A stretch of DNA of 64,000 nt from an uncultured Gemmatimonadales bacterium (GTDB lineage Bacteria; Gemmatimonadota; Gemmatimonadetes; Gemmatimonadales; GWC2-71-9). The stretch covers positions 352,001 through 416,000 of the forward strand of contig CAVYSW010000009.1 of the NCBI GenBank assembly GCA_963771275.1. Reading direction: 5' to 3'. Shown in pieces: positions 44,040 to 63,144 of this stretch. Within the stretch, counting starts at the first letter, position 1, and every line of letters begins with the position of its first letter. The position numbers and the translations under genes are program-made. The notes beneath the pieces are model-generated. The model did no database searches. It was given only the letters and a program-made list of their open reading frames with translations, and was not told where the DNA came from.

Positions 44040-44055
44040 ACCGCGGGGGCCACCG

Positions 44056-44811
44056 ATGGTGCTGTATCTCGCGGTCTCCGTCATCATTCTCCTGGCGTCG
44101 TTCCTCTTCGCGATGCTGGGATTGGGCGGCGGGATGGTCTATGTCCCCGTCCTCACGTGGGCCGGGTTTCCGGTCAAGGACGTGGCCATCCCGCTGGGGC
44201 TCCTGCTCAACGGGCTCAACACGCTCCTGGCGCTCATTCCCTTCGCCCGCAACAAGCTGGTCGATTGGAAGGGCGGGCTCGCCATGGCGGCCGCGGCGTT
44301 CGTGCTGGCGCCGGTCGGCGCCTACACGGCGCAGTTCGTGCCGATCAAGACCCTGCTCCTCTTGTTCGCTGCGGCCGTGGTGGTGGCGGCCATAAGGATG
44401 ATCACCGTTGCCCGGCGGCCGGAGCCCGAGGCGATCATGTCGCTCGCGAAGCGATCGGTCATCGGCGGGTTCGTGGGTGGCTTCGCGGGCTTCATGGGCG
44501 GCATGCTGGGGTTGGGCGGCGGCTTCATCATCGCGCCGATCCTCATGTGGATGGGGTACCGGACCAAGGAAGCGGCCGCGACGACCGCGTTCGTGGTCAC
44601 CTTCTCCTCGCTCTCCGGCTACCTGGGGCACATGGCCGAGGGGCACATGAACTGGCCGCTCACGATCGCGGTCGTGGTCGCCGTCATCATCGGGTCGCAG
44701 CTCGGCGGGACGTTCATGTCCACGAAGGCGAAACCGCGCTGGGTCAAACAGCTCTACGCCGTCGTGCTGTTGGCGATCGCCGTCAAGCTTATCCTGGGAG
44801 TTCTGGGATGA
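44056..44811 (+). CDS. TauE/SafE (TSUP) family exporter
   Basis: Two GLGGG motifs in a duplicated multi-TM layout. Confidence 0.9.
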   Translation: MVLYLAVSVIILLASFLFAMLGLGGGMVYVPVLTWAGFPVKDVAIPLGLLLNGLNTLLALIPFARNKLVDWKGGLAMAAAAFVLAPVGAYTAQFVPIKTLLLLFAAAVVVAAIRMITVARRPEPEAIMSLAKRSVIGGFVGGFAGFMGGMLGLGGGFIIAPILMWMGYRTKEAAATTAFVVTFSSLSGYLGHMAEGHMNWPLTIAVVVAVIIGSQLGGTFMSTKAKPRWVKQLYAVVLLAIAVKLILGVLG

Positions 44812-45806: not shown

Positions 45807-45817
45807 GGTGTCGGTAG

Positions 45818-46401
45818 ATGACACGAATACATAGATCGCCCGGCTGGCATCGCTGGCTCGCAGGCCGTCCCTCGGTTTCGGTGGAGAGAACCATGGTCGC
45901 GATGCTGCTGTCGAGCGTGTTGGCCTCCGCTCCCGTCTCGGCGCAAGCGCCGGGCGCGGCGCCCACCGACTCGACACTGCGTGCCGCGCCGCCGAGCAGC
46001 GACGTGACCCAGGCCAACAAGCTGCTCGGAACGCTCATGAGCCCGTTCTGCCCGGGGCTCACGCTCGCCAACTGTCCCAGCGTCTACGCCGAGACGCTCC
46101 GGGTCTCGGTGCGGGAACGCCTCGACGCCGGCCAGGCGCCGGACTCGATCGTGGAGTCGCTGGTCGCCGCGTTCGGTGAGGGGATTCGGGGCGCGCCGCG
46201 GCCGCAGGGCTGGGGCTCGTCCTGTGGGCGCTCCCCGCCGTCGTGGTGGGTGTCGGCGGAATCGCCGTGCTGTGGTGGTTGCGAACCCGTGGCGTGCCTG
46301 CGGCCACGGTCCCGTCGCAGGGACACAGCGGTGCCGTGGGTTCCCCGGTCACCCCTGGCAACCTCGCCCGGCTGCAGGCCGAACTCCGGAACTTGGAATG
46401 A
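45818..46401 (+). CDS. CcmH/NrfF-like protein (frameshift near 46212; start uncertain)
   Basis: LMSPFCPGLTL..CPS, then GLVLWALP TM in the shifted frame. Confidence 0.7.
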
Positions 46402-47365
46402 GCGACGCCGTCACGCCTCCGCCCGGGGCGGACGTCCAACGGTCACGTACACGCGACATGCCGGCGCCGCTCGAGACCCGTCACCCCGAGCCCGACGTCT
46501 CGGTCACCCGCCTCCTGATCACGATGGTGCTCAATTTCGCGATCACGATCGCGGAGATCGCCGGCGGCCTGCTGTCGGGCAGCCTCTCCCTCGTCTCGGA
46601 CGCCCTGCACAACTTCTCCGACGGTATCGCCATCATCATCACGTATCTGGCGATCCGGCTCAAGCGGCGGGAGAAATCACTCAAGCACACGTTCGGCCTG
46701 AAGCGGGCCGAGATCCTGGCGGCCGTGATCAACGCCGCCGTGCTGCTCACGATCTCGCTCTACCTGTTCGATGAGGCCGCCCAGCGGCTGATCCCATCCG
46801 GCCCCCGTGCAGGGCGGCCTGATGGCGGGGGTGGCCCTGCTCGGCCTGGCGGCCAACGTGGTGGGGACCTTGCTGCTGCGGCCGGACGCCGCCCACAGCC
46901 TGAACGTGCGCTCGGCGTACCTCCATCTCCTCAGCGACGCCGCCTCCTCGGTGGGGGTCGTGCTCGGTGGCCTCGCGGTTGTCGTCTGGCGCGTCTATTG
47001 GGTCGATCCCGATCCTCACACTGCTCATCGGCCTCTACGTGCTGCGAGAGAGCTTCCGAATCCTGTCGCAGGCCGTTCACGTTCTGATGGAAGGCGCGCC
47101 GCCGGGGATCGACCTGCAAGCGCTGCGCGATGCCGTCGAGGCGCTCCCGGAGGTCGACGACATCCATCATCTCCACGTGTGGACGGTAGGGGAGAACGAC
47201 ATCCATCTGGAGGCCCATCTCAACGTGCAGGACATGCGGATCAGCGAGGGGGGCGAACTCCGCCGGGCCATCGAGATCATGCTGCGGGCGTCGTTCGGCA
47301 TCAACCACGTGACCATCCAGCTGGAATGCGGGCAGTGCCGGGAGGTGGGGTTGATCAAGGGATAG
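46398..47365 (+). CDS. CDF-family (CzcD-like) cation efflux transporter (frameshifts near 46795 and 47008)
   Basis: SLSL.SDALHN.SD, TFG.KR.EIL, N.RSAYLH..SD, LMEG.P, IHHLHVW, HVTIQ.E. Confidence 0.88.
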
Positions 47366-47384
47366 CCGCGTCCGCTCCGTGGCC

Positions 47385-48596
47385 TCAGACCCCCGCCTCA
47401 CCGCCGGGGTCTCGGAGCGTCGGCGCCGCCGTGGCCGCCCGGTCTGTCGCTGAGGCATCGGTGTTGACGAGCGTGGCACGCCGCCCGAGCCACGCCAGTA
47501 CGGTCCCCAGCACGATCCCGACCAGATAGCCGTAGGGGAGCCCCACCGCCGTGAGTCCCACGAGCACCGTCACCGGGAAGTCGCGGCCAGACGGCGCGAC
47601 GTCGCGCACGAGCCAGATGAGCCCCAACCCCTCGAACAGGAGCAGAACGCCGAGGACGGGGAGCGGGAAGGCCCGCACGATCTGGTCCATGCCTGGCCCG
47701 AACAGCACGCCGAGGGTGACGAACACCGAACCGTAGATGACGACGGACCCGCCGGTCCGGCCGCCGAAGGTGTAGTGCCCCACCATCCCGCCCGACCCGT
47801 GGCACGTCGGCACGCCTCCCAGCCAAGGATTGACGAGGTTCATCACGGCGTAGGTGAGCCCGATCTTGCGGATCGTGATCCGGCGCTCGGGGAACAGATC
47901 CTTGGCCAGCTGGTGGGTGGCGAGCACCGAGTTGCCCAGCGAGAGGGGGATCTGCGGCAGGGCGAGCAGCACGAAGCCGGTGGCGATGTCGGCGAGCCGA
48001 GGGATGTGCGTGGACGGGAGGTGCAGCCCTACACTCGCGGCCACGCTGTCGGGGTCCAACCGGAATGCCGCATACACCAGCCCGAGCGCCACGACGGGTA
48101 GGGCCGCCGGAAGCCGGCGACTTCCCAGCAGCAGCACCACCACAGTGAACGCGGCGCCGGCAAGCCAGTATCCAGATACGCCCTCCGCCCGCACGTAGTT
48201 CTGGAGCGCGATGCCCGCGAGCTGGAGGCCCAGGCCGAACTGAATCCCGCGCACCACGCTCTTGGGGATGACGCGTGCCAGCCAGGTAAGCAGGCCGGTG
48301 GACGCCAGGAGCAGCATGACGACGCCAATGGCGAGCCCGGCGCCGTACAGGACCGGCGCCGGCGTCTGCTGGGCGATGACGATGGCGGCCATGGCCTTGA
48401 GCGGCTGGACCGGCATGGGCATGCGGTACACCAAGCCGGTCAGGATCTGCATGGCGCCGAACATGATCAGCACGCTGGCGCCGCCCAGCTGCGCGGCCAG
48501 GGCGACGCCGACCAGGAGGGGAACGTCGGTGCCCATGTCACCGAAGGCGCCGGCCAGCTCGTGGCGGTTGAAGCGGATGCGCGGGGGTGGGATCAT
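47385..48596 (-). CDS. Putative molybdate/sulfate transporter (MOT1-like)
   Basis: ELAGAFGD.GT..P, PMPVQPLKA, P.CHGSGG...HY.FG.RTG. Confidence 0.85.
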   Translation of the reverse strand: MIPPPRIRFNRHELAGAFGDMGTDVPLLVGVALAAQLGGASVLIMFGAMQILTGLVYRMPMPVQPLKAMAAIVIAQQTPAPVLYGAGLAIGVVMLLLASTGLLTWLARVIPKSVVRGIQFGLGLQLAGIALQNYVRAEGVSGYWLAGAAFTVVVLLLGSRRLPAALPVVALGLVYAAFRLDPDSVAASVGLHLPSTHIPRLADIATGFVLLALPQIPLSLGNSVLATHQLAKDLFPERRITIRKIGLTYAVMNLVNPWLGGVPTCHGSGGMVGHYTFGGRTGGSVVIYGSVFVTLGVLFGPGMDQIVRAFPLPVLGVLLLFEGLGLIWLVRDVAPSGRDFPVTVLVGLTAVGLPYGYLVGIVLGTVLAWLGRRATLVNTDASATDRAATAAPTLRDPGGEAGV

Positions 48597-48721
48597 GCGG
48601 CCAAGGTGCAGCGCCCGTGCCGGAACGTCCAGCACCCCCGTGCCGCGGGGCTCAGGCGCCACGGTGGCCGGGCCGAATGCCTCACCGCCCTCCGCCAACG
48701 GCTCCGCCCGGGGAAAAGGGC

Positions 48722-50509
48722 TCAGGCAGACCGGATCGCGACCTTCCCGTCACCCCCGATCAGCCCCCGCAGCGCCTCCTCCCCCACCGGCGGCTCGGCC
48801 AGCCGCGGCGTCACGTACACCCGTGCGGCGCGGTCGCGCACTGCCGCGATCGGCTCGCGCTCGGCCGCGGCCCGGCGGCGCAGGAGCCCATCGCGCGGGC
48901 CCGCCGCGGCGAGACTGCCGTTGATCACCCAGCCATGCGGCGTAATGCCGGCTCGCTCGAGATCCTCCGCCAGCGCCGCCGCTTCCAGCACCGGGGTCGT
49001 CTCCGCCAGCGTCACCAGCAGGATCTTCGTGTACTCGGCGTCCCGCAGCCGCATGAGCGGCGTCGTGACCCGCAGCGATTTCTCCTCGGCGTGGCGCAGG
49101 ACCTCCCGATGGTACGCGCCCGCCGCGTCGAGCAGCAGCAGCGTGTGCCCGGTGGGCGCCGTGTCCATGATCACCACCTCCCGCGCCGCCGCCGAGACAA
49201 GCCGCGAGAAGGCGTGGAACACCGCCACCTCGTCGGTACACGGCGAGCGCAGGTCCTCCTCCAGCAGGGCCCGGCCATCGTCGTCCAGCGTCGCGCCCAC
49301 GCGCTCGAGCACCTTGCGGCGATACGCCGCCGCCTCGGCCTCGGGATCGATCCGGCTGATGCGCAACCGCGCCCCGCCGTCTCCGACGGTCTCCGCCACG
49401 TGCGCGGCCGGGTCGGTGGTCGTGAGGTGCACGGCCACGCCCCGGGCCGCCAGCTCCACGGCCAGCGCCGAGGCGATGGTCGTCTTGCCGACCCCGCCCT
49501 TGCCCATCACCATGACCAGCCCGCGCCCGCGCGCCTCGAGCTGCGCGACGAGATCCTCCAGCGCCTCCGTGCCGGCGATCGCGGTCCCGCCGTCGTCGGA
49601 CCAGGGCACGACGACTGCCGCGTCGGGCCCGTCGGAGAGGAACGCACGGAGCGCCGGGAGCCCAACCACGTTGTCGGCGCGAAGCGGGACGTCGGTGCGG
49701 GGCAGCGCGGAAAGCTCCTCCGGCATCTGCTCCAAGGCCTCGCGGCCGGACGCCTCGATGGCCACGGCGAGCGGATCGGACCGATCCGTGGCCAGGAACA
49801 CGCCGTTCACCACCAGATGCTGGTTGCTGAGGCCCAGCGCCGCCAACTCGCCGCTGGTGCGCGCGGCCTCGGCCAGCGTCGCCCGTTCCGGACGGGCCAC
49901 CAGGATCAGCCGCGTCCGGTTCGCGTCGGCCAGCGCCGCCACCGCCTCGCGGTACCGGTCGCGCTGCATCGTGAGGCCGGACGCCGGCCCGAGGCAGGAG
50001 GCGCCACGCTCGTTGCTGTCGAGGAAGTCCGTCCACGCCGCGGGGAGCCGCAGCAGGCGCAGCGTATGGCCGGTGGGAGCCGTGTCGAAGATGACGTGGT
50101 CGAACTCGGCGGCGACGTCGCCCGTCAGCAGGCCGGTGAACTCGTCGAACGCCGCCACCTCCACCGTGCACGCGCCCGACAGCTGCTCCTCCATGCCCGC
50201 CACCGCGTCCGCCGGCAGCGTGCCGCGGTACGGGCCCACCACCCGCTCGCGGTACTGCCGCGCCGCCTCCTCGGGGTCGATGTTGAGTCCCCAGAGATTC
50301 GGCACGCCCGCCACCGCGGTGGGGGCCTGGCCAAGCCGCGTGCCGAGCACATCATCGAGGTTCGAGGCGGGATCGGTGCTCACGAGCAGCACCCGCTCAC
50401 CCTGCCCCGCCAGGCGTACGGCGGTCGCCGACGCCAGCGATGTCTTGCCGACCCCGCCCTTCCCCGTGAAGAAGAGGAATCGCGGCGCGTCCTCCATGAA
50501 CGGGGTCAT
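48722..50509 (-). CDS. arsA: Arsenical pump-driving ATPase
   Basis: Two GKGGVGKT, two DTAPTGHT, Cys in SGACT, SCLGP, SPCT. Confidence 0.96.
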   Translation of the reverse strand: MTPFMEDAPRFLFFTGKGGVGKTSLASATAVRLAGQGERVLLVSTDPASNLDDVLGTRLGQAPTAVAGVPNLWGLNIDPEEAARQYRERVVGPYRGTLPADAVAGMEEQLSGACTVEVAAFDEFTGLLTGDVAAEFDHVIFDTAPTGHTLRLLRLPAAWTDFLDSNERGASCLGPASGLTMQRDRYREAVAALADANRTRLILVARPERATLAEAARTSGELAALGLSNQHLVVNGVFLATDRSDPLAVAIEASGREALEQMPEELSALPRTDVPLRADNVVGLPALRAFLSDGPDAAVVVPWSDDGGTAIAGTEALEDLVAQLEARGRGLVMVMGKGGVGKTTIASALAVELAARGVAVHLTTTDPAAHVAETVGDGGARLRISRIDPEAEAAAYRRKVLERVGATLDDDGRALLEEDLRSPCTDEVAVFHAFSRLVSAAAREVVIMDTAPTGHTLLLLDAAGAYHREVLRHAEEKSLRVTTPLMRLRDAEYTKILLVTLAETTPVLEAAALAEDLERAGITPHGWVINGSLAAAGPRDGLLRRRAAAEREPIAAVRDRAARVYVTPRLAEPPVGEEALRGLIGGDGKVAIRSA

Positions 50510-50853
50510 GCGTGGTCGTGCCCAGCAACCGCCGGCGCCAGGCCCACGAGGGCCGCCAGCGCGGACCGCGCGGGATAGCCGCCGGACGCCACGACGTCCC
50601 CTCGCCAGAGCACGAGCGGCAGGGACGCCGTGCCCTGTTGCTGGAGGGTGCGCCGCACCACCGCGTTGGCGACGAACGCCTGCGCCTCCTGTGACAGGTT
50701 GTAGCGCCGCACGTCCACCCCGCGCGCGCGCAGCCATTCCAGGTCCGCGGCGAACCGCGGCAGCGCCGGATCCACCTCCACACCACAGACGCCGCTGGGG
50801 CAGCACATGGGCGGATCGAAGATCTCCAGTCGCTCCGGCTTCATACCTCCCAT
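50506..50853 (-). CDS. arsD: Arsenite metallochaperone
   Basis: FDP.MCC..GVCG..VD, RYNL, LP, YP.R. Confidence 0.93.
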   Translation of the reverse strand: MGGMKPERLEIFDPPMCCPSGVCGVEVDPALPRFAADLEWLRARGVDVRRYNLSQEAQAFVANAVVRRTLQQQGTASLPLVLWRGDVVASGGYPARSALAALVGLAPAVAGHDHA

Positions 50854-50867
50854 ACGTCCTTCCCTCC

Positions 50868-51632
50868 TCAGCCCGTGCGTCCCGGCGGCGCACCGCCGGT
50901 CCGGAGATAGTCCGCGAACTCATCGGGCAGATCGCTCGCCCGGATCCCCCTCGTCGCCCGCTCGAGGTCGTACTCCACGCGGACGAGTTCGGGTGTGGCC
51001 TTGCCATCCTCGAAATCGAGCAGGACGTATCCGGCCCGCCAATCGCCGTCCTTGGGCCGGCCCACCGAGCCGGTGTTCACGAAGTGGATCCCCTCGATCT
51101 CGCGATGCCAGGGCTTGTGCGTGTGTCCGAACGCGATCACGTCTCCAGGCCTGGCTCCGGCGATGCCCGCCATCCTGAGGCAGAAGCTGTCCGGCCGATC
51201 CTCGGTCCAGTAAACGGTATTGAGCGTGGGCGTACCGTGCACCAGGATCAGCGTGGCTCCCGACTGATGACCGCCCCCCAGGCGGACGTCCAGCCGGAAG
51301 GGGAGCGTCCTGAGGAACCGCTTCGTCTCGGCGTTCACGTGGCGGCGGGTCCAGTCGTAGCTGAGGTGCGACAGCTCCTCCTGGCGTGGATCCTCGTACT
51401 TGCAGCCGCAGTGCTTGTAGTCGGTGGCGACCGTCGAGTCGTAGTTGCCGGCGATCCCGGCAATCCCGGCGTCGCGCAGGAGGGCCACCGTCTCGTCCGG
51501 CCATGGCGCGTAGCCGACCAGATCGCCCAGGTGATAGGTGGCCGTGATGCCGTCCCTGGCCGCGAGGTCCGCGAGCACCGCCTCGAGCGCCGGGGCGTTG
51601 GCGTGGACGTCCGAGATGAGCGCGTACTTCAT
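50868..51632 (-). CDS. Metallophosphoesterase with CGC motif
   Basis: SDVHAN, GDLVGY, GNYD, HCGCKY, VHG.P, GHTH, N.GSVG.PKD. Confidence 0.9.
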   Translation of the reverse strand: MKYALISDVHANAPALEAVLADLAARDGITATYHLGDLVGYAPWPDETVALLRDAGIAGIAGNYDSTVATDYKHCGCKYEDPRQEELSHLSYDWTRRHVNAETKRFLRTLPFRLDVRLGGGHQSGATLILVHGTPTLNTVYWTEDRPDSFCLRMAGIAGARPGDVIAFGHTHKPWHREIEGIHFVNTGSVGRPKDGDWRAGYVLLDFEDGKATPELVRVEYDLERATRGIRASDLPDEFADYLRTGGAPPGRTG

Positions 51633-52702
51633 GCCGTCTGCTCCACGCCGTCGAACCAGTGCCTGGTCGCGACACAGACGTGGCACACCGACAGCATCAC
51701 GGGCACCTCCACGAGCACGCCCACCACGGTGGCCAGCGCGGCTCCCGAATCGGCGCCGTACAGGGCGATGGCCGTGGCCACGGCCAGCTCGAAGAAGTTG
51801 GACGCGCCAATCAAAGCACCCGGGGCGGCGACCGGATACGGCACCTTGAACAGCCGCATCAGCCCGTACGTGAGCGAGGAGTTGAAGTAGACCTGAATGA
51901 GAATCGGAATGGCGATCAACACCACGTGGAACCAGCGCGTCGTGATGTTCTCGGCCTGGAAGGCGAAGATGAGGACGAGCGTGGTGAGTAGGGCCAGCAC
52001 CGTGACCGGGGCGAAGAGCGCGACGTACCGGCCGTTGAACCACTCCACGCCCTTGCGGGCGATCAGCGTCCGCCGGCTGATCGAGCCCGCCGCGAGCGGG
52101 ATCACCACGAAGATGATCACGGAATAGAGGAGTACCTCGAACGGCACCTGGAGACCCGAGGCGCCGGACACGAGGAGCTTCACGACCGGCGCGAACGCGA
52201 CCAGCATGATGAGGTCGTTGACCGAGACCTGCACCAGCGTGTAGGCCGGATCGCCATCGGCCAGATACGACCACACGAACACCATGGCCGTGCACGGCGC
52301 CGCTGCGAGGATGATCACGCCCGCGATGTACTGGCTCGCCAGCTCTTGCCCGATCAGCGGCAGGAACAGGTGGCGGAAGAACAGCCAGCCGAAGAACGCC
52401 ATCGAGAAGGGCTTCACGAGCCAGTTCACGAACACGGTCACGAACAGGCCCCTGGGACGCTTGCCGACGTGCTTGATCGAGGCGAAGTCGATCTTGAGCA
52501 TCATGGGGTAGATCATGAGCCAGATCAGGACGGCGATGGGCGCGTTGATGTGGCTCCCCTCCCCGAACTCGAGCCCCCGGATCACGCCGACGAACCCGGG
52601 GAACGATTTCCCGATCACGACGCCGAGGACCATGCAGAGCGCCACCCAGAGGCTCAGGTAGCGCTCGAACACGTTCATCTGCTTGGCACCCTGAGCCGTC
52701 AT
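51629..52702 (-). CDS. acr3: ACR3 family arsenite efflux transporter
   Basis: FERYLS.WV, NWL.KPF.M, APCTAMV.VW, SNFFELAVA, LVEVPVML. Confidence 0.96.
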   Translation of the reverse strand: MTAQGAKQMNVFERYLSLWVALCMVLGVVIGKSFPGFVGVIRGLEFGEGSHINAPIAVLIWLMIYPMMLKIDFASIKHVGKRPRGLFVTVFVNWLVKPFSMAFFGWLFFRHLFLPLIGQELASQYIAGVIILAAAPCTAMVFVWSYLADGDPAYTLVQVSVNDLIMLVAFAPVVKLLVSGASGLQVPFEVLLYSVIIFVVIPLAAGSISRRTLIARKGVEWFNGRYVALFAPVTVLALLTTLVLIFAFQAENITTRWFHVVLIAIPILIQVYFNSSLTYGLMRLFKVPYPVAAPGALIGASNFFELAVATAIALYGADSGAALATVVGVLVEVPVMLSVCHVCVATRHWFDGVEQTA

Positions 52703-53118
52703 TCTCTGGCTCCCGCGGCATGAAGAATGGGTCGCGTAATGCCCAATTCGGCGAGGTCGAGGTCCAGCCGGCACAACTCGACGACATCCACCGCTCGAAG
52801 CTGGCGCAGCACCGCCGTGTCAGCGCGGACCATCGGGTCGGCGCGCAGCCTGGACCACACCTGCTCGAGAACCCCGACGGCGTCGGCTTGGTCACTCAGA
52901 CGGTAGTGCACCCAACGCCCTTCCTTCCGTTCCGCGATCAGACCTCCGCGCCTGAGCTCAGCCAGGTGGGCTGACACGGTGGAGGGGGAGAGATCGAGGA
53001 CCGCGGCAATCTGGCAGCCGCACAGCTCGCCGGGACGGAGCATCGCGAGAACGCGCAGGCGGGCGGGGTGCGCCAGGGCCTTGAAGGTCTGCACGAGGTC
53101 CGAAAGCGAAGCAGCCAC
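52699..53118 (-). CDS. arsR: ArsR family repressor of the ars operon
   Basis: FKALAHP.RL, ELCGCQI, STVSAHL, KEGRWV.Y; first gene of the acr3 operon. Confidence 0.88.
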   Translation of the reverse strand: MAASLSDLVQTFKALAHPARLRVLAMLRPGELCGCQIAAVLDLSPSTVSAHLAELRRGGLIAERKEGRWVHYRLSDQADAVGVLEQVWSRLRADPMVRADTAVLRQLRAVDVVELCRLDLDLAELGITRPILHAAGARE

Positions 53119-53127
53119 GATGACTCC

Positions 53128-53183
53128 ATTTCGTTACTTGGCCAACTGACGCATATTATGGACGCAGGTGAAACGGGAGTCAA
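53128..53183 (-). promoter_or_regulatory. Sigma70 promoter and probable ArsR operator of the ars operon
   Basis: TTGACT-N17-CATAAT (53183-53155) followed by TTGGCCAAGTAACGAAAT. Confidence 0.7.
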
Positions 53184-53480
53184 GGCCCGGCACACCAGCC
53201 GGCCACCCGGGCCGCGCCCGGTCCCACCCGTCACCACGGTCATCGCCATGACGCCGTCCGCGGGCAACCGGAAGCTCGCTGCCGTCCGGAGTCATCAGAG
53301 CCAGCGGCATCTCCAGACGGACACGCCCGCATCGCGCGCGCTCATTGTGGAAGCACCGGAACATTTCCACCGCGCGGCGCCTCGCGCCGACATGCGGACC
53401 CTCGAAACCACGCTCGAGGACCTGCTGCCGGCCCTGCGTCAAGCCGCACGTCACGGCCGCAGCCGTCAGGAAGCCCTCCG

Positions 53481-53942
53481 ATGACGACCCGCTCGTCGGT
53501 CGCGCCCTCGGTGGCGGCCCGCCGCTTCGGCGCGCTTGCCGATCCCACCAGACTGCGGATCGTCACCCTCATGGTGCAGGGGGAATGGTGCGTGTGCGAG
53601 CTGGCCTCGGCGGTCGGCCTCGCGCAGCCGCTCGCCTCGTACCACCTGAGGGCGCTGCGACGGGCCGGATTCCTCCACGTCAGGCGCGAGGGTCGCTGGC
53701 ACTACTACGCCTTGAACCGGGAGCAGTTCGAGGGGTGCCAGGCGTGGATTCGTAACACACTCGAAGGGATTGACGAATCCGCTCACCTCGGGCGGCGGTG
53801 CTGCAGCACTGGAGCAAGGCCCAACGTGCCTTCGGCACATGCCGAGGCTGTGGCCGACGTGATGCCGTTAGGACGGCGAGTCCCGACGAGAGACCCCTCC
53901 AGGGCACGGCGCCCCGACGCACGCGCCAGCACTGACAGCTAA
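53481..53942 (+). CDS. ArsR/SmtB family repressor
   Basis: ALADPTRL, CVCEL, QP..SYHL, EGRW..Y.L, C-terminal CC. Confidence 0.85.
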   Translation: MTTRSSVAPSVAARRFGALADPTRLRIVTLMVQGEWCVCELASAVGLAQPLASYHLRALRRAGFLHVRREGRWHYYALNREQFEGCQAWIRNTLEGIDESAHLGRRCCSTGARPNVPSAHAEAVADVMPLGRRVPTRDPSRARRPDARASTDS

Positions 53943-53950: not shown

Positions 53951-53966
53951 GTTACAACCTTGTAAC
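53951..53966 (+). promoter_or_regulatory. Pho-box-like repeat upstream of the GT4 operon
   Basis: GTTAC 53951 and GTAAC 53962 (11-bp period). Confidence 0.55.
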
Positions 53967-54010
53967 CGGCTCGTGGCCGGCGCTTGACGAGCCGGGCACA
54001 AGCTACATCC

Positions 54011-55162
54011 GTGCACATAGCCCTCGTCACCGACACGTACACCCCCCAGGTGAACGGGGTGACGACCGTCGTGCGCCGCATGGCACAGACGATCGCGCGC
54101 GCCGGCCATGCGTGCGCGGTGGTAGCGCCGCGTTACCCCGGTGACGGCGTCGCCCCTGCGCTGGAGCTGCGGCTCCCCTCCATTCCGTTTCCTCCGTACC
54201 CCGCGATCCGCCTCGCGCTGATGGCCGGCGGGCCGGTGAGGCGGTACCTCGATGCCTTCGGTCCGGACATCGTGCACGTGGCCACCGAGGGACCGCTGGG
54301 CCTCGTCGGTCGAGGCTACGCGATCCGCCACAAGCTGCCGCTCGTGACCGCGTTTCACACGGACTTCCCGGGGTACTGCCGTCACTACCGCGCCCCGGGG
54401 CTCGAGCCCGCGGTGTGGCGCTGGCTCCTGTGGTTCCACCGCCCGGCACGCCTCACCCACACGCCCGGCGAGTTCGTGCGGGACAGGCTCATCGCAAAGG
54501 GGATCCACCAGGCCGTGGTATGGGGACGCGGGGTGGACACAGACCACTTCCGGCCCGACCGCGATCGCGCCCCGTGGCGCTGGCGCCTCGGGCTGCCGGC
54601 GGGGGCGGCGCTCGTGCTTCACGTGGGGCGCCTGGCGCCGGAGAAGAATCTCGAGACGCTCTGGGAATCGTGGGCGATCGCGCACGCGGCGCTCGGCGCG
54701 CGCGCGCAGTTCGTCGTGGCGGGCGACGGCCCCACAGCGGCACTCGTCCGCAGCCGGATGCCGTGGGCCACCCACCTCGGCTTCCTCAACCGCGAGACCC
54801 TGGCCGACCTGTACGCCGCCGCCGACCTCTGCGTCCTGCCCTCCGCAACCGAGACCTGCGGCCTCGTGGCGCTCGAGGCCATGGCGAGCGGTGTGCCCGT
54901 CGTGGCCGCCGACGCGGGCGGCTTTCGCGAGAGCATCCGGCACGGCGTTACGGGCCTGCTCGCGCGGCCCAGGGACCCCGAGGCGCTCGCCGCCCACGTC
55001 ATCCACCTCGCCATGGAGCGGGAGCGTCGCCTCGCCCTGGCGGCGGCGGCGCGGCGCTTCGCCCTGTCGCGCAGCGCCGCGCTCGACGACGCATCCCTGC
55101 TGGTGCAGTACCAGACCATCCTCGGGCACGATCTCCCGAAGGGAAGCGAATGCGCCGCGTAG
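54011..55162 (+). CDS. GT4 family glycosyltransferase (lipid glycosyltransferase-like)
   Basis: TDTY.PQVNGV, HVATEGPLG, HTDF..Y, RGVD..F.P, VGRLAPEKN, ET.GLV.LEAMASG. Confidence 0.9.
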   Translation: MHIALVTDTYTPQVNGVTTVVRRMAQTIARAGHACAVVAPRYPGDGVAPALELRLPSIPFPPYPAIRLALMAGGPVRRYLDAFGPDIVHVATEGPLGLVGRGYAIRHKLPLVTAFHTDFPGYCRHYRAPGLEPAVWRWLLWFHRPARLTHTPGEFVRDRLIAKGIHQAVVWGRGVDTDHFRPDRDRAPWRWRLGLPAGAALVLHVGRLAPEKNLETLWESWAIAHAALGARAQFVVAGDGPTAALVRSRMPWATHLGFLNRETLADLYAAADLCVLPSATETCGLVALEAMASGVPVVAADAGGFRESIRHGVTGLLARPRDPEALAAHVIHLAMERERRLALAAAARRFALSRSAALDDASLLVQYQTILGHDLPKGSECAA

Positions 55163-55980
55163 CCATCGTCCTGGTGGACGGCCTTCGACCCGACGCGGTC
55201 GCGCTCGCCCCGATGCCGGCATTGGACCGGCTCGGCAAGGACCATGTGCGCGCCCTCGGCGCGGCCACCATCCGGCCGAGTGCCACCGTGGCGGCGCTCG
55301 CGACGTTGGCCACCGGCCTGAGCCCCGCCGCTCACGGCCTGATGGAGCCCGGGCTGCACTTCCTCCGACGGCTCGGCGGACTCCGGCCCCTTCCCGCCGA
55401 GCTGGCGCGGCACGCCCTCCCGACCACCGTCGTCACTACCCGCTTGCCGGGCCCGGCTCTCGCGATCGCGCAGGCACTCACCGCATTCGCGGGAATCCGT
55501 CACTTCGTCGCTGCTGGCCGGACGGCGCTCGAGACGGCGCTCACCGCCCGGGAGTGCTTCGAACGGATGGACGCCGGGCTGTTGTTCGTCTATCTCCCGG
55601 ACTGCGACCGCACCGGCCACCGTGCCGGCTGGATGTCCTCCGCGTACCTGCGGAGCGCCGCCGACGTCGATGGCGCCCTCGACCTGTTCACCCAGGGGCT
55701 CGGCGACGGGACCGTCTTCGTGCTCGCCGACCACGGCGGTGGCGGCGTGTATCCCCGCGACCACGACCTGCCGCACCCGGCGAACGACCACATTCCGCTC
55801 GTCGTCGCCGGTCGCTCGACCCGCCGGCGCTGCGTGCTCCCCGAGCCGGTGTCCATCCTCGACGTCCCGGCCACCGTGCTCTGGCACCTCGGCCTCGCCG
55901 TCCCGGAGACGTACGAGGGACGCGTGCTGCGCCACGCCTTCCTCGCGACGTCACTCGGGGCAGAGGTAGCCGCGGCATGA
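55150..55980 (+). CDS. Cytoplasmic alkaline-phosphatase-superfamily (NPP-like) phosphodiesterase
   Basis: VDGLRPD, PSAT, D..GH, ADHGG; no signal peptide. Confidence 0.8.
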   Translation: MRRVAIVLVDGLRPDAVALAPMPALDRLGKDHVRALGAATIRPSATVAALATLATGLSPAAHGLMEPGLHFLRRLGGLRPLPAELARHALPTTVVTTRLPGPALAIAQALTAFAGIRHFVAAGRTALETALTARECFERMDAGLLFVYLPDCDRTGHRAGWMSSAYLRSAADVDGALDLFTQGLGDGTVFVLADHGGGGVYPRDHDLPHPANDHIPLVVAGRSTRRRCVLPEPVSILDVPATVLWHLGLAVPETYEGRVLRHAFLATSLGAEVAAA

Positions 55981-56405
55981 TGCGCCTGCTCACGCATCTG
56001 GGCGGAGCCCGGACAACGTTGGGGATCGGGCTGGCCCTGGTTCTGCTCGGAGATCGAACGGTCGGGCTCGCGGTCTTGCTCGCCAACGCGGCGTCGCACG
56101 TCGTCGTGCAGCTGCTCAAGCGTCTGGTGGCGCGCCCGCGGCCCTGCGACGGTTTCGGCCGGCCCCTGGCCCTGGTCGCGCTGCCGGACCCGTTCTCGTT
56201 TCCCTCCGGGCACGCCGCCGCGGCCACGGCCGTGGCCGCCACGGTGGCCTTCGCCCATCCACTGCTCGCCCCCGTGGTCCTCCCCCTCGCCGCGCTCGTC
56301 GCCGCGTCCCGGGTCACGCTACGCGTGCATCACGCGGGCGACGTCGTGGCCGGCGCGCTGCTCGGGCTGGCGGGGGCGCTCCTCGCCATCCGGCTCCTCC
56401 TCTAG
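55977..56405 (+). CDS. PAP2 family phosphatase
   Basis: K......RP, SFPSGH, SR.....HH..DV. Confidence 0.9.
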   Translation: MMRLLTHLGGARTTLGIGLALVLLGDRTVGLAVLLANAASHVVVQLLKRLVARPRPCDGFGRPLALVALPDPFSFPSGHAAAATAVAATVAFAHPLLAPVVLPLAALVAASRVTLRVHHAGDVVAGALLGLAGALLAIRLLL

Positions 56406-56445: not shown

Positions 56446-56494
56446 CTGACAGGGTCGTTACGGACTCGCGCTACGCGCGTCATGCAATCGTTAC
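56446..56494 (+). promoter_or_regulatory. Pho-box-like repeats upstream of the TonB-dependent receptor
   Basis: CTGAC 56446, GTTAC 56457, GTCAT 56479, GTTAC 56490, all in 11-bp phase. Confidence 0.55.
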
Positions 56495-56596
56495 GGCCGG
56501 CACCGAGGCTTCCCTTGCTCGGCCGGCGCGCACGCGTGGGGCCTGCCCGCCGCCGAGCCCGAGATCACCTGCGGGCCCCAGGGACGCGACACACGT

Positions 56597-59404
56597 ATGG
56601 CACGTTCGATCCGCGGCGCGGCACTCGGACTCCTGTTCGCGGCGCTGTTGCTGGAGGGCCTCGCACTCTCGCCGAGGCTGCTCCTTGCCCAGGCGCAGGT
56701 CAGGACCATGGGACGTATCACGGGCCGCGTCATCAGCCAGGAGACGGGTCAGCCTGTCCAACGGGCGGAAGTGCACGTTGCCGGGACCAGCCTCCAGGCG
56801 CTCACCGACCTGAACGGACGGTACTTCGTCCCGAACGTCCCACCGGGCGCTCAGAACATCGAGGTCCGGCAGGTCGGCTTCACGTTCAAGACCGTGACCA
56901 ACGTGCTCATCACGGAGGACGAAACGACCGTGCTCGACGTCGCGCTCTCGTCCGCGACATTCGCCGTGGAAGCGATCACCGTGACCGCGCAGGTCGAGCG
57001 GGGCACGGTCGCCCGCGCGCTCGAAGAACAGCGCACTGCCCTGAACATCGTGAACGCGCTCAGCGCCGAGCAGATCGCGAAGACCCCCGACGCCGACGCC
57101 GCGGAGGCGGTGCGGCGAGTGAGCGGGGTCACGGTGCAGGACGACAAGTACGTGTTCGTGCGCGGCCTGGGCGAGCGCTACACCACCACCTCCCTCAACG
57201 GCGCGCGACTCCCCAGCCCCGAGCCGGAGAAGCGGGTGGTCCCGCTCGACCTGTTCCCGTCGAGTCTCCTGGAGTCCATTTCCACGTCGAAGACCTTCAC
57301 CCCCGACCAGCCTGGGGACTTCAGCGGGGCGGAGGTGAACCTCCGGACGCGCACGTTCCCCGTGAATCACCTGCTGCAGTTCTCGCTGTCTGGTGGGTAC
57401 AACAGCCTGGTGACGGGCCGGGATGTCCCCGCGCCGCCCACGACAGGCCGAGAATGGCTGGCCATGGCGGCCGGGCAGCGCCAGCTCCCCACGCAGCTCA
57501 CCGGCATCACGGATTTCTCGCAGCTCACCCAGAACGACATCAACGCCCTGATCCGCACGCTGCCGCGCCGGTGGACGGTCGACCAGGGCAGCGGGCCGCC
57601 CAATGTCTCGGGGAGCCTCTCGTTCGGGGGCGAGGATCCGGTCCTGGGATTGCATCTCGGCTACGTCGGGTCGCTGTCGTACTCCCGGAGCGAGCAGTTG
57701 CGCAAAGGGGAGATCCGCGCGCGCGCGGTCCCCCGCGACAGCACGGGCGTTCCCGCGCCCTACAACACGTTCACGGGCAGTACGGGACAGAGCAGCGTGC
57801 TCTGGGGCGGGCTGCTGAACCTGAGCGCCCTCATCGGGCACGCCACCAAGATCGAGCTGAACAACACGTACGACCGCACGGCCGACAACTCGGCGCACCA
57901 GGACTGGGGCACGCTGGAGGAGTTCCAGCAGGTGGACAGCGTGCGGCGCACCCAGCTGCAGTACGTGGAGCGCTCCGTGCGGTCCAATCAGCTCCGGGCG
58001 ACCCACCAGTTGGGCGCTCATAACCTCCTGATGTGGTCGGTGACCTCTTCGGGCGTGACGCGCGCCGAGCCCGATCGCGCCGACCTGGCCTACGGCTATG
58101 AGCTGTCCGCCACCGGAGAGCGACTTCCGCTGGCTTGGTTGGGCTTCATTCCCGAGGCGGCCAAGCGCACCTCGTCCCAGCTTGCGGAGGACGCGCTGGG
58201 CGGCGACCTGGACTACGCGCTCTCCGTCGGCTCGCCCGAGCGGCCGGTGACGTTCAAGGTCGGTGGAGCTTATCGTCACACCAAGCGCGACGCCCACTCG
58301 GTGTCCTACAACGTGCGCGCGCTTGGCTTGGGCGCCGCCGCTCGCGCCGCCGGGCCGGACTCGCTGTTCTATGGCGCGTTCACCAACCCCGACTCCGCGC
58401 GCGTCACGCTCGAGCCGAACAATAGCGGCGGCACCTATCAGGCAAGGGACCGGGTATCCGCCGGGTACCTCATGGCGGAAATCCCGCTGGGCGGCCGGCT
58501 CACCATCATGGGCGGCGCCCGGCTGGAGCGGTGGGCCCTCGACATGGATGCCGAGCCCGTCAGTCGGGGGACGGTCGCCATCACGCGCCGGAATACCGAC
58601 GTGCTGCCGTCGTTGGCCGTGAACGCGAAGCTGAGTCGGGACCAGACGCTGCGGCTGTCCGCCACGCAATCCCTGGCCCGGCCTGAGTACCGCGAGCTGG
58701 CCCCTGTGAGCTACCGCGACATGGTCGGCGAACGCGAGGTGTTCGGCGACTCCAGCCTCGTTCGCACCCTGGTCCAGAACTACGACGCACGGTGGGAGTG
58801 GTACCCCAATCCGAACGAGGTGGTCAGCGTCGCCGTGTTCGCGAAGCGCTTCGACCATCCGATCGAGCAGATCGACGTCGCCACCTCGGGCGCATCCCAG
58901 CTGAGCTTCATCAACGCCGAGTCGGCGGTCAACTACGGCATCGAGCTAGAGCTCCGCAAGGGACTCGGGTTCCTGGGTCTGTGGCCGCTCGCCCTCTTCA
59001 GCAACGGCACCCTGATGCGGAGCCGCATCAACACCAGCAACAGCAACCTCTCGGCGCTCACGAATGACCAGCGGCCCATGGTGGGGCAGGCGCCGTACGT
59101 GGTGAACGCCGGTCTCTCCTATGAGAGCCTGTCCGGCGCGACCAGCGCCACGCTGCTCTACAACGTCGTGGGGCCGCGCATCACCTCGGCCGCCGTCACC
59201 CCACTCACCGTCGACACCTACGAGCGGCCCCGTCACGTACTGGACTTCTCGTTCCGCTTCGCCGTCTACGGCGGGATGACCGCGAAGCTCGACGCCAAGA
59301 ACCTGCTCGACGCCGCGTACGAAGAACGACAAGGGGACGTCATCCGCTACCGCTACACCACGGGGCGCTCGTTCAGTCTCGGTGTGAATTGGCGCCTGCA
59401 GTAG
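56597..59404 (+). CDS. TonB-dependent receptor with N-terminal carboxypeptidase-regulatory-like domain
   Basis: Signal peptide, G.ITG.V, plug VRGLGERY..T.LNG, VPLDLFP, KTFTPD, barrel with NLLD. Confidence 0.93.
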   Translation: MARSIRGAALGLLFAALLLEGLALSPRLLLAQAQVRTMGRITGRVISQETGQPVQRAEVHVAGTSLQALTDLNGRYFVPNVPPGAQNIEVRQVGFTFKTVTNVLITEDETTVLDVALSSATFAVEAITVTAQVERGTVARALEEQRTALNIVNALSAEQIAKTPDADAAEAVRRVSGVTVQDDKYVFVRGLGERYTTTSLNGARLPSPEPEKRVVPLDLFPSSLLESISTSKTFTPDQPGDFSGAEVNLRTRTFPVNHLLQFSLSGGYNSLVTGRDVPAPPTTGREWLAMAAGQRQLPTQLTGITDFSQLTQNDINALIRTLPRRWTVDQGSGPPNVSGSLSFGGEDPVLGLHLGYVGSLSYSRSEQLRKGEIRARAVPRDSTGVPAPYNTFTGSTGQSSVLWGGLLNLSALIGHATKIELNNTYDRTADNSAHQDWGTLEEFQQVDSVRRTQLQYVERSVRSNQLRATHQLGAHNLLMWSVTSSGVTRAEPDRADLAYGYELSATGERLPLAWLGFIPEAAKRTSSQLAEDALGGDLDYALSVGSPERPVTFKVGGAYRHTKRDAHSVSYNVRALGLGAAARAAGPDSLFYGAFTNPDSARVTLEPNNSGGTYQARDRVSAGYLMAEIPLGGRLTIMGGARLERWALDMDAEPVSRGTVAITRRNTDVLPSLAVNAKLSRDQTLRLSATQSLARPEYRELAPVSYRDMVGEREVFGDSSLVRTLVQNYDARWEWYPNPNEVVSVAVFAKRFDHPIEQIDVATSGASQLSFINAESAVNYGIELELRKGLGFLGLWPLALFSNGTLMRSRINTSNSNLSALTNDQRPMVGQAPYVVNAGLSYESLSGATSATLLYNVVGPRITSAAVTPLTVDTYERPRHVLDFSFRFAVYGGMTAKLDAKNLLDAAYEERQGDVIRYRYTTGRSFSLGVNWRLQ

Positions 59405-61966: not shown

Positions 61967-62004
61967 GTTACCGCCGCGTTACAACGCCGTTGCCCTTTCG
62001 TGAC
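61967..62004 (+). promoter_or_regulatory. Pho-box-like repeats upstream of pstS
   Basis: GTTAC 61967, GTTAC 61978, GTTGC 61989, GTGAC 62000. Confidence 0.7.
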
Positions 62005-62064
62005 ATGTCACGACGATCGTTATTGGCTGGCGAACTCCTCCCACCGCTGCGCGAGAGTTGCGCG

Positions 62065-63144
62065 ATGATGATGCCCCGAATGCGATGGCTCCCGGCCGCG
62101 GTCGCGCTGATCGGCACCGCGTGCGGCGGCCGTGGCAAGCCCACTGTCCTCCTCAACGGCGCCGGCGCCACGTTTCCCAACATCATCTACCAGCGCTGGA
62201 TCACCGACTACAACGCGGCGCACGCCGGCGTCGAGCTCAACTACCAGTCCATCGGGTCGGGCGGCGGAGTGCAGCAGTTCATGGACGGCACCGTGGACTT
62301 CGGGGCCAGTGACGGCCCGATGGCGGACGAGGAGATCGCGAAGGTCGGCGGCAACGTGCTCCACGTTCCCACGGTGCTGGGCGGCGTGGTACCGGCCTAC
62401 AACCTCCCCGGTGTCACCCAGACCATCCGATTCACGCCCGATGTGCTGGCGGACATCTTTCTTGGCGCGATCACCCGGTGGGACGACGTCCGGATCCGGA
62501 GCGCCAACCCCGGCGTTACCCTCCCCAACCGCGCGATCGTCGTGGTCCATCGCTCCGACGGGTCGGGCACGACCTACATCTGGACGGACTACCTCACTGT
62601 GGTCAGCGAGACCTGGGCCGGGCGGGTCGGGCGCGGGCGCGCGGTCAACTGGCCCGTCGGTATCGGCGGCCGCGGCAACGAGGGCGTCGCCGCCGCCATC
62701 ACGCAGACCCCGGGCGCGCTGGGCTACGTCGAGCTGGGGTACGCCCTGATCAACAAGATGCCGGTGGGGGCGGTCCGGAACCGGTTCGGCAACTTCGTGA
62801 CGCCCGACTTCTCCACCGTCTCGGCGGCCGCCGCCGGCGTGGTCGATGCCCTCGGCCCGGACACCGATTTCCGCATCAACCTGATCGACGGCCCGGGGGA
62901 GCGGACGTATCCCATCTCGTCTCTCACCTGGCTGCTGGTCAAGCGGGACTACGGAACGGCCGGGGCCAAGGCCCGCGAGCTGGTGCAGTTCATATCATGG
63001 GCCCTCACCGAAGGCCAGGCCACGGCCCCCCAGCTTGGCTACGCGCCGCTCCCGGCCGGGCTCGTGCCGCTGGTCGAGGCGCGTCTCCGGACGATCACGG
63101 CCGGGGGGCAACCGGTGTGGACGGGCCCGGCGGCGGCCAGGTAG
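62065..63144 (+). CDS. pstS: Phosphate ABC transporter substrate-binding lipoprotein
   Basis: GAGATFP, NYQSIGSGGG, DFGASD, HRSDGSGTT, GNEGVA, GYVE, YPI. Confidence 0.96.
   Translation: MMMPRMRWLPAAVALIGTACGGRGKPTVLLNGAGATFPNIIYQRWITDYNAAHAGVELNYQSIGSGGGVQQFMDGTVDFGASDGPMADEEIAKVGGNVLHVPTVLGGVVPAYNLPGVTQTIRFTPDVLADIFLGAITRWDDVRIRSANPGVTLPNRAIVVVHRSDGSGTTYIWTDYLTVVSETWAGRVGRGRAVNWPVGIGGRGNEGVAAAITQTPGALGYVELGYALINKMPVGAVRNRFGNFVTPDFSTVSAAAAGVVDALGPDTDFRINLIDGPGERTYPISSLTWLLVKRDYGTAGAKARELVQFISWALTEGQATAPQLGYAPLPAGLVPLVEARLRTITAGGQPVWTGPAAAR

Follow-up and report, generated by a model that had tools for sequence, protein, structure and literature searches.

A predicted phospholipid-to-glycolipid remodelling operon of the Gemmatimonadales that pairs an Agt-type glycosyltransferase with NPP and PAP2 enzymes

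The window analysed here is a 64,000-nucleotide stretch of DNA from an uncultured Gemmatimonadales bacterium (assembly GCA_963771275.1, contig CAVYSW010000009.1, positions 352,001 to 416,000), whose genome comprises 3.86 Mb in 11 contigs at 70% G+C. Positions 53951..56405 of its + strand carry an operon of three overlapping genes, which encode a glycosyltransferase of family GT4, a small enzyme of the alkaline phosphatase (AlkP) superfamily that resembles the NPP phosphodiesterases, and a lipid phosphatase of the PAP2 family. The reading that we favour, with little better than even confidence, is that this operon is PhoB-controlled and leaderless and swaps phospholipids for phosphorus-free glycolipids when phosphate is scarce, with NPP and PAP2 taking the place of the metallophosphoesterase PlcP.

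We infer the following course of events, in which the substrates, the order of the steps, the orientation of PAP2, the identity of the regulator and the induction at low phosphate are predictions. Phosphate scarcity would lead to PhoB-driven expression of the operon, and NPP would cut the head group from a phospholipid, phosphatidylethanolamine (PE) or phosphatidylglycerol (PG), in the cytoplasm and leave phosphatidic acid. PAP2 would then remove the phosphate of phosphatidic acid to yield diacylglycerol (DAG) and free phosphate, and GT4 would move a sugar from a UDP-sugar to DAG, the sugar being glucose or glucuronic acid in characterised relatives.

The three overlapping genes and their products

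The open reading frame (ORF) listing and start mapping place the GT4 gene at 54011(GTG)-55162 (+ strand, 383 aa), the NPP gene at 55150-55980 (+ strand, 276 aa) and the PAP2 gene at 55977-56405 (+ strand, 142 aa), with overlaps of 13 nt between GT4 and NPP and of 4 nt between NPP and PAP2. The original prediction, made from the sequence alone, had proposed three overlapping genes of these kinds; they are present at the coordinates it gave, and Pfam agrees for all three. None of the products reaches the curated equivalog level of NCBIfam. They are predicted to be, in gene order, a DAG glycosyl- or glucuronosyltransferase of the Agt type (from Pfam, BLASTP and a tree), a cytoplasmic phospholipid head-group phosphodiesterase of the AlkP superfamily (from PF01663, an AlphaFold model and Foldseek) and a five-helix phosphatidic acid phosphatase (from PF01569 and its motifs).

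GT4 matches the Pfam families PF13439 (105.5 bits) and PF00534 (117.7 bits). A search of a plasmid collection matched it to two Pseudomonas aeruginosa records; in the first, the match overlaps a gene annotated 'UDP-2,3-diacylglucosamine diphosphatase' and adjoins an adenylate cyclase gene, and in the second it lies after cerN, plcH and plcR. By their gene order, we take these neighbourhoods to be PA3219-PA3218 (plcP-agt1) and PA0844-PA0842 (plcH-plcR-agt2), respectively. BLASTP aligns the window GT4 to the Agt2-position protein with 38% identity over 356 aa (E 3e-62) and to the Agt1-position protein with 37% identity over 327 aa (E 3e-49). Both values lie within the range of 35-41% given for validated Agt enzymes among one another in the available text of Jones et al. 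2021 (PMC8528852). According to the same text, PA3219 is PlcP, the product of Agt1 (PA3218) is monoglucosyl-DAG and that of Agt2 (PA0842) glucuronosyl-DAG, each formed from DAG and a UDP-sugar, and both agt operons of P. aeruginosa have Pho boxes (PMC8528852).

The best full-length NCBIfam match of GT4 is GpgS (NF053787), at 139.5 bits and below the cut-off of 480. GpgS is described, in the accessible part of the source, as a lipid-acceptor GT4 that acts as an N-acetylglucosaminyl-phosphatidylglycerol synthase (PMC12713373). A sequence search of the PDB retrieved MshA, BshA and PimB-type enzymes and no lipid glycosyltransferase. A maximum-likelihood tree of 85 sequences (a quick IQ-TREE run with SH-aLRT support only, in which the two P. 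aeruginosa proteins represent the Agt enzymes) places the Agt1- and Agt2-position proteins of P. aeruginosa within a 79-row clade (SH-aLRT 96) and five other GT4 paralogues of this genome outside it; the branches of the P. aeruginosa proteins are long, and their exact placement is unsure. The original prediction had called GT4 a lipid-type enzyme, which agrees with the grouping of the Agt-position proteins with the NPP-linked clade, and the window GT4 is, by homology only, a predicted Agt-type enzyme. Another GT4 of this genome (L109:6231-8125, contig C5 of G000) is followed by a polysaccharide deacetylase. This pair recalls gpgS-gpgD, which makes glucosaminyl-phosphatidylglycerol in P. aeruginosa according to the part of the publication that is accessible (PMC12713373).

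NPP matches PF01663 with 76 bits (cut-off 23), in two stretches that cover the profile only in pieces, and its match to PF00884 (Sulfatase) stays under the cut-off, at 23.2 against 25 bits. The N-terminus reads MRRVAIVLVDGLRPD and starts two residues before the first β-strand; because the first metal-binding Asp is residue 10, there is no room ahead of it for a signal peptide. Residues D10, T46, D151, D153, H157, D194, H195, H205 and H209 are invariant in 14/14 orthologues, with either H205 or H209 as the last metal ligand, and Thr46 aligns with the position of the nucleophile Thr of Xanthomonas NPP. The PF01663 match, the early Asp and the invariant Thr46 bear out the proposal of a signal-less AlkP-superfamily enzyme with a probable Thr nucleophile.

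The AlphaFold (AF2) model of NPP has a pLDDT of 85.6 and a pTM of 0.88. Its best Foldseek match is Xac NPP (7n1s; E 4e-13), with a TM-score of 0.74 when normalised on the query and of 0.55 when normalised on the target, and NPP3 and NPP1 come next; sequence identity to the structural matches is 12-18%. The protein has 276 aa against 380-393 aa in Xac NPP, is thus about 110 residues shorter, and falls outside the definition of a full-length NPP domain. Some 90 residues that follow the DH pair in canonical NPPs, ahead of the last metal-binding His, are missing from it, and it is referred to here as a mini-NPP.

A profile search of 1.8 billion proteins collected 417 clusters of the wider NPP family at E<=1e-30. 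The third-best hit, P0004, is a 702-aa fusion of GT4 to NPP with a linker of about 55 residues, and it occurs on three contigs. Homologues are named by generic labels only, and the ESM Atlas returns the same generic family. In P0113 (525 aa), a glycerophosphodiester phosphodiesterase domain is joined to a more distant mini-NPP. Other family members carry Big_1, kelch, LysM or PGA_cap domains, and some are secreted proteins with Ig-like domains.

PAP2 matches PF01569 with 71.5 bits (cut-off 27.2). The catalytic motifs of PAP2 enzymes are KxxxxxxRP, PSGH and SRxxxxxHxxxD; the corresponding residues K48..R55-P56, P76-S77-G78-H79 and S111-R112..H118..D122 are intact in the window and invariant in 11/11 orthologues. 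Scored against NCBIfam, the protein obtains 51.6 bits with SepP (cut-off 250), 32.7 with the YbjG-type UppP (229), 24.6 with LpxE (177) and 18.9 with PgpB (261). The match to the SepP profile spans positions 48-186 of 188, and since it starts only at position 48, the first helix of the canonical enzymes is missing. In all 11 orthologues, the side of the N-tail and the catalytic loops carries 8-11 Lys/Arg residues, against 0-2 on the other face. By the positive-inside rule, this asymmetry suggests that the active site of PAP2 faces the cytoplasm, a lead in which three of the counted charges are catalytic. A DAG route shared with NPP and GT4 requires the active site of PAP2 to be where these two enzymes work.

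The same profile matches bear on a different explanation, namely that the operon remodels envelope glycans or lipid A to spare phosphorus, with undecaprenyl diphosphate or lipid A as the substrate of PAP2 and a polyprenyl-linked or lipopolysaccharide (LPS) substrate for GT4 and NPP. SepP, the YbjG type and LpxE are the closest PAP2 families, and TuaC, a GT4 of teichuronic acid, is among the GT4 matches with 67 bits. All of these scores are far under their cut-offs, which is 550 for TuaC; moreover, GT4 groups with the DAG-using Agt enzymes and has orthologues that pair with PlcP, and neither NPP nor GT4 carries an export signal. We consider envelope remodelling very improbable.

Promoter layout and linkage of the genes

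Four Pho-box-like half-sites, phased by 11 bp, precede GT4 at 53951..53988 on the + strand: GTTAC at 53951, GTAAC at 53962, GTGGC at 53973 and TTGAC at 53984. They are followed by a -10-like hexamer, CAAGCT (53999..54004, + strand), which is spaced 10 nt from the last box and 6 nt from the GTG start codon. The first two boxes, GTTACAACCTTGTAAC at 53951-53966, make up the GTTAC/GTAAC repeat upstream of GT4, a pattern that, with up to one mismatch, has 2 copies in the window where 0.12 would be expected, the other one being in front of pstS. This 11-bp-phased repeat had been noted in the original prediction. It is real, yet it is only the first half of an array of four boxes and a -10 element.

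The layout is retained across genomes. In an alignment of the regions upstream of GT4 from the window and 40 other collinear loci (n=41), box 1 is GTTAC in 41/41. Six bases further on, box 2 is GTnAC, with G in 39, T in 39, A in 35 and C in 41 of the 41 loci; after another six bases comes box 3, GTc(A/G)C, and after six more box 4, TTGAC, again in 41/41. Ten bases past TTGAC stands a hexamer that has A as its second and T as its sixth base, each in 41/41 loci, and the start codon follows the hexamer by 6-7 bases. Conservation of the Pho box across genomes, which the original prediction had named as a point to check, is therefore seen in every collinear locus, and the same layout recurs before pstS. 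The short distance from the -10 hexamer to the start codon (6 nt in the window) implies a leaderless transcript, and the 5' end of the operon mRNA should accordingly coincide with the start codon or adjoin it.

A consensus scan of 53400-56700 found no sigma-70 -35/-10 pair, and no intrinsic terminator was found in the same interval. Two other interpretations of the boxes were rejected. TTGAC is a poor candidate for a -35 element, as it lies merely 10 nt from the conserved -10 and forms part of no sigma-70 consensus pair. A palindromic operator of the form GTTAC-N6-GTAAC is contradicted by the orthologues, most of which have GTTAC-N6-GT(C/G/A)AC together with two further in-phase boxes and thus a direct-repeat array. 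In Escherichia coli the Pho box ends 10 bp ahead of the -10, a rule that the four-box layout resembles, and the GTCAC variant of the box presumably corresponds to the CTGTCAC core of the E. coli Pho box.

A weight matrix was built from 40 loci of other genomes, this genome being left out, and run over both strands (7.72 million positions). Three sites only score above 12 bits in this genome. The operon ranks first with 31.9 bits and pstS second with 17.0 bits, and the pstS promoter (61967..62020, + strand) has the same layout: GTTAC at 61967, GTTAC at 61978, GTTGC at 61989, GTGAC at 62000 and, after 10 nt, GATCGT at 62015-62020. The third site, at 16.2 bits, lies at position 268153 of contig C9 of G000 (L110, ~2154-2697), upstream of a gene assigned by Pfam to ExbD/TolR; the energising system of TonB receptors may belong to the same regulon. 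GTGAC-N6-GTGAC pairs also precede pstS in two other genomes for which the intergenic region was captured (L077 and L081). Where GT4 and NPP are divergently transcribed, an exact phased box pair is present in 13/24 intergenic regions, compared with a mean of 0.05 and a maximum of 2 in shuffled sequences. We infer from context that the boxes are PhoB sites, and the conserved four-box leaderless promoter is a working Pho-box model for the Gemmatimonadales.

Orthologues of NPP (E<1e-40) are present in 17/61 close relatives, this genome counted. Among 16 fetched loci, GT4 is adjacent in 15, PAP2 occurs in 12 and pstS (>=50% identity) in 8. A pattern scan with one genome per species confirmed 162 relatives, of which the best 80 loci were kept, in partial overlap with the 16 fetched loci. 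Here NPP has GT4 at a distance of no more than 3 kb in 74/80 loci, PAP2 in 63/80 and both in 62/80, and pstS is found at >=45% identity in 25/80; if the count is confined to the 54 loci flanked by at least 3 kb at both ends, GT4 is found in 49, PAP2 in 44 and the two together in 44. The genes occur in three arrangements: (a) the collinear GT4>NPP>PAP2, (b) PAP2> <GT4|NPP> pstS>, and (c) <GT4|NPP>PAP2>, often followed by a second GT4. Genomes labelled Gemmatimonas sp. (L085, L101 and L104) have arrangement (c) with the second GT4. The triplet, whose conservation was in question, is thus retained in most of these loci and through three gene orders. A full collinear triplet with the conserved promoter was also found in L047, a metagenome-assembled genome titled 'uncultured Alphaproteobacteria', a label that is probably wrong because the tree places its GT4 in close company with those of Gemmatimonadales.

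This linkage bears on the possibility that the genes have separate functions, NPP being a cytoplasmic phosphodiesterase of general use, which would salvage phosphorus from nucleotides or soluble diesters and owe its place in the operon only to the shared Pho promoter. The secreted forms of the wider family (Ig-like, kelch, LysM) and the single fusion to a glycerophosphodiester phosphodiesterase are in line with such a role, as is the occurrence of NPP alone in the Acidobacteriota loci L092 and L097; NPP also stands alone in L072, L075 and L093. On the other side, the adjacency to GT4 survives three rearrangements (74/80 of the best 80 loci out of 162) and extends to a gene fusion, and NPP is not similarly linked to pstS or other Pho genes. 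An independent role of NPP therefore has little probability in our view.

PAP2 is also found with GT4 in genomes without NPP. Ten PAP2 loci were fetched from such genomes; an Agt-like GT4 adjoins PAP2 in six, with only a partial hit in L129, and is absent in four. One of them, L131:4790-8751 (G063), is a GT4-PAP2 operon with the same four boxes and -10 element, followed by pstS, from which NPP may have been deleted. The GT4 of L131 matches the window protein only to residue 335 of 383 and differs in its C-terminus.

PlcP and the supply of diacylglycerol

The original prediction held that the system is independent of PlcP, and this genome indeed contains no match at E<=1e-3 to the PlcP-position protein of P. 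aeruginosa and none at E<=1e-20 to a Gemmatimonadales PlcP. It has nine other Metallophos matches. One of these, on contig C5, was considered as part of a plcP-agt-like pair and rejected: it lies about 4 kb from a GT4 gene with two genes between, and that GT4 is the one that pairs with the deacetylase. Among the 61 relatives, the same P. aeruginosa query finds a strong match only in G024 (E 1.8e-80), the next best being 5.6e-13; 26/61 have some match at E<=1e-3, presumably to other metallophosphoesterases.

The survey was extended to 301 Gemmatimonadota genomes drawn evenly from the phylum, with thresholds of E<=1e-20 for PlcP (G024 query), E<=1e-30 for NPP and E<=1e-15 for PAP2. NPP is present in 61 genomes, PlcP in 6 and PAP2 in 119 (G100 among the latter). 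NPP coincides with PAP2 in 59/61 genomes and PlcP with PAP2 in 0/6. NPP and PlcP occur together in none of the 301 genomes, as expected if the two are exclusive, yet chance alone would give an overlap of only ~1.2 with 6 PlcP genomes.

In two genomes, G203 and G256, the gene after PlcP encodes a GT4 that shares 48% identity with the window GT4 over its full length. In the tree, these two form the sister group of the eight GT4s of arrangement (b), with an SH-aLRT of 100, and the combined group lies inside a 52-row clade (SH-aLRT 96) that also contains all 42 collinear GT4s. PlcP-linked GT4s thus nest within the NPP-linked clade, which indicates a non-orthologous displacement: by tree placement, one orthologous GT4 has PlcP as its partner in two genomes and NPP in the others. 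Natural operons of three forms exist, GT4-NPP-PAP2, GT4-PAP2 and PlcP-GT4. In G024 (L119/L120), G221 (L121) and G163 (L122), PlcP is followed by a GT28-like transferase (PF13528/PF04101) and no GT4, an operon that is a further form for the same job; upstream of PlcP in G024 are four phased boxes, GTGAC, GTCAC, ATGAC and GTGCC.

A GT4-PAP2 operon without NPP would by itself suffice to turn phosphatidic acid into DAG and DAG into glycolipid. The simplest place for NPP is upstream of phosphatidic acid. In its most specific form, the serial route has a phospholipase D-like mini-NPP and a PAP2 turned towards the cytoplasm by the loss of its first helix, which together would constitute the phylum's own phosphate-releasing replacement of PlcP, feeding Agt. 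We offer this version tentatively, as one that may hold and that we regard with some doubt.

Alternatively, DAG could be supplied in parallel, with NPP as a phospholipase C-type stand-in for PlcP that yields DAG and a phosphorylated head group, and with PAP2 making DAG from newly formed phosphatidic acid. GT4 and NPP occur without a nearby PAP2 in L086, L088, L100 and L103, and GT4 and PAP2 without NPP in L126 and L131, so that each partner can stand alone with GT4. It is NPP, not PAP2, that the phylum tally finds in place of PlcP, and the protein to which GT4 is fused is likewise NPP and not PAP2. The cleavage of lipids by mammalian NPP6 and NPP7, which is of the phospholipase C type, also speaks for a parallel supply. 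Against it stand the presence of PAP2 in 59/61 NPP genomes and in 0/6 PlcP genomes, which is unexpected if NPP makes DAG as PlcP does, and the 4-nt overlap of NPP and PAP2 in the collinear form. NPP-less GT4-PAP2 operons fit the serial route and the parallel supply equally well. All told, we judge a parallel supply to be unlikely, though it is the foremost of the alternatives.

A third possibility is that lipid synthesis is re-routed, NPP splitting CDP-DAG into CMP and phosphatidic acid, PAP2 producing DAG and GT4 the glycolipid, while the old phospholipid is diluted by growth. The pyrophosphate bonds of nucleotide diphosphates are the classic substrates of NPPs, and the nearest structures are Xac NPP, NPP1 and NPP3. 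All three proteins are predicted to work at the cytoplasmic face, where CDP-DAG is made, and the NPP-less GT4-PAP2 variant would already re-route phosphatidic acid. The mini-NPP is, however, without the region of about 90 residues of canonical NPPs. Re-routing would also recover no phosphorus from existing lipid, unlike the displaced PlcP, which acts on mature PE and phosphatidylcholine (PC) in the accessible text of PMC4796936. It seems improbable to us.

Several observations weigh against the removal of phospholipid head groups by NPP and PAP2 in place of PlcP under PhoB control, the reading that we prefer. The zero overlap of NPP and PlcP is close to the chance value, with only 6 PlcP genomes, and the association of NPP with PAP2 (Fisher p 1.8e-26) is overstated, since the genomes are related. 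Of the 301 genomes, 240 are without NPP, and 234 are without both NPP and PlcP. PAP2 is absent from the neighbourhood in 10/54 well-flanked loci; a copy with 43-46% identity is encoded elsewhere (E<=1e-18) in 4/5 genomes checked for an unlinked PAP2. The substrate of the mini-NPP is unreadable from known NPPs because of the missing region of about 90 residues, PAP2 comes nearest to curated families of undecaprenyl-diphosphate and lipid A phosphatases, with every score far under cut-off, and the assignment of the boxes to PhoB is by context only.

Genomic neighbourhood and relation to known systems

The operon lies in a region that is a phosphorus-homeostasis cluster. A phoB-like response regulator gene (~35200-35895, + strand) and a phoR-like kinase gene (35907-37598, + strand) were located by tblastn with the regulator and kinase of the relative L015, to which they are 69% and 48% identical, respectively, and by Pfam. 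The L015 pair was the sole upstream pair of a relative scored against NCBIfam; the top match of its regulator is PhoB (TIGR02154) with 237 bits, and its kinase matches PnpS with 349 bits and then PhoR with 291 bits, all under the curated cut-offs. Upstream of phoB, a CHAD-domain protein is encoded at 24290-25726 (+) and an exopolyphosphatase of the Ppx/GppA type at 25799-27409 (-).

Between phoR and the operon lies an arsenic/metal island of about 16 kb (37768..53942, identified by Pfam), which is not part of the system. It is bounded by two ArsR genes and holds an ArsP-type permease, thioredoxin-like, CMD, Crp, FmdE, TauE and CcmH-like proteins, as well as a MOT1 molybdate transporter, ArsA, Acr3 (SBF) and a Metallophos protein (51111-51632, - strand). 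The island looks inserted, because in relatives (L014-L017, L020, L027 and L028) a histidine-kinase gene ends just 5' of GT4. The gene of the ArsP-type permease (PF03773) is split into ORFs 38110-39009 and 38726-39421, which match profile positions 6-147 and 168-293, and this suggests a frameshift or an assembly error. The arsR gene directly upstream of the operon encodes a protein with a CVC motif and lies beside ArsA and Acr3. Its adjacency to GT4 is not conserved in relatives and, given the inserted island, is incidental; with a conserved promoter of its own in the operon, arsenic-inducible read-through from ArsR was rejected as the main control, and as the main control only.

Downstream of PAP2, a trio of genes occupies 56597-61945: a TonB-dependent receptor (TBDR; 56597..59404, + strand; Pfam and NCBIfam), an fn3-domain protein and a 207-aa ORF without a Pfam hit. 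A weaker box-like site (56455..56510, + strand), the fourth-best hit of the genome at 8.4 bits, precedes the receptor gene. The TBDR-fn3-ORF207 order is repeated in L013/L029, L027 and L070, and the trio may be a Pho-regulated uptake system. It is followed by pstS (62065..63144, + strand), which encodes a phosphate-binding lipoprotein (PF12849, 134 bits) whose start was re-set to MMMPRMRWL..., giving a lipoprotein-like leader, and then by pstC.

The kind of system is known, and the predicted DAG-supplying enzymes and the promoter model are new variants of it. In the PlcP-Agt pathway of Sinorhizobium meliloti, Phaeobacter MED193, SAR11 HTCC7211 and P. aeruginosa (PA3219/PA3218/PA0842), an Agt-type GT4 stands beside the DAG supplier under a Pho-box promoter, as is predicted for the window, and the window GT4 is as close to the P. 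aeruginosa Agt-position proteins (37-38% identity) as the validated Agt enzymes are to one another. The differences are that DAG would be supplied here by NPP, of the alkaline-phosphatase fold, and PAP2, both of folds unrelated to the PlcP metallophosphoesterase, that GT4 comes first in the operon and that the mRNA is predicted to be leaderless. 

The plcH-plcR-PA0842 locus of P. aeruginosa is a second point of comparison; its Agt2-position GT4, directly downstream of plcH and plcR, is the best match in the plasmid collection. The phospholipase C PlcH is regulated by phosphate and belongs to the phosphoesterase family, with an alkaline-phosphatase-type fold and a Thr nucleophile. Compared by description only, it differs from the mini-NPP in being large, secreted and of another Pfam family. 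In the available text of PMC8528852, PlcH is not given as the DAG source of Agt2.

A PAP2-type phosphatidic acid phosphatase that makes DAG for a glycolipid glycosyltransferase is found in cyanobacteria and plastids, and the NPP-less GT4-PAP2 operons would follow the same plan, again by description. We know of no pairing of these cyanobacterial and plastid enzymes with an NPP. The catalytic core of the window NPP, with its Thr nucleophile and two-metal site, is that of the NPP family (autotaxin/NPP2, NPP6 and NPP7; Xac NPP), of which NPP2, NPP6 and NPP7 cut lipid phosphodiesters. The window protein has 276 aa against about 390 or more, is predicted to be cytoplasmic and not secreted, and has no counterpart of the long insert that precedes the last metal-binding His. 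MdoB/OpgB and LtaS are also alkaline-phosphatase-fold enzymes with a Thr nucleophile, and turn phosphatidylglycerol into DAG by stripping its head group; they differ in being membrane-anchored, periplasm-facing transferases of the Sulfatase family of Pfam. In the accessible part of Sebastian et al. (PMC4796936), MdoB is mentioned as a supplier of DAG in E. coli, and cyanobacteria without PlcP are suggested to obtain DAG through an enzyme that acts on phosphatidate. In a literature search that left most subscription journals outside, we found no paper linking the Gemmatimonadota to lipid renovation and no description of an NPP-type enzyme or PAP2 in bacterial lipid renovation.

The swap of phospholipids for glycolipids is a main bacterial way to lower the demand for phosphorus, and it alters the sensitivity to antibiotics and phages in the organisms studied. 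In heterotrophic bacteria, it is usually traced by the marker gene plcP. With the NPP form in 61/301 genomes and plcP in 6, most of this capacity would escape surveys based on plcP counts, in a phylum that is common in soil. If the proposed chemistry is confirmed, the operons would add a lipid-active member to the bacterial NPP family and possibly a PAP2 of inverted topology, and GT4-NPP-PAP2, GT4-PAP2 and PlcP-GT4 would form a clean natural case of non-orthologous displacement. For no bacterial NPP before the mini-NPP would an action on membrane phospholipids have been shown, and for no PAP2 before this one an inverted topology.

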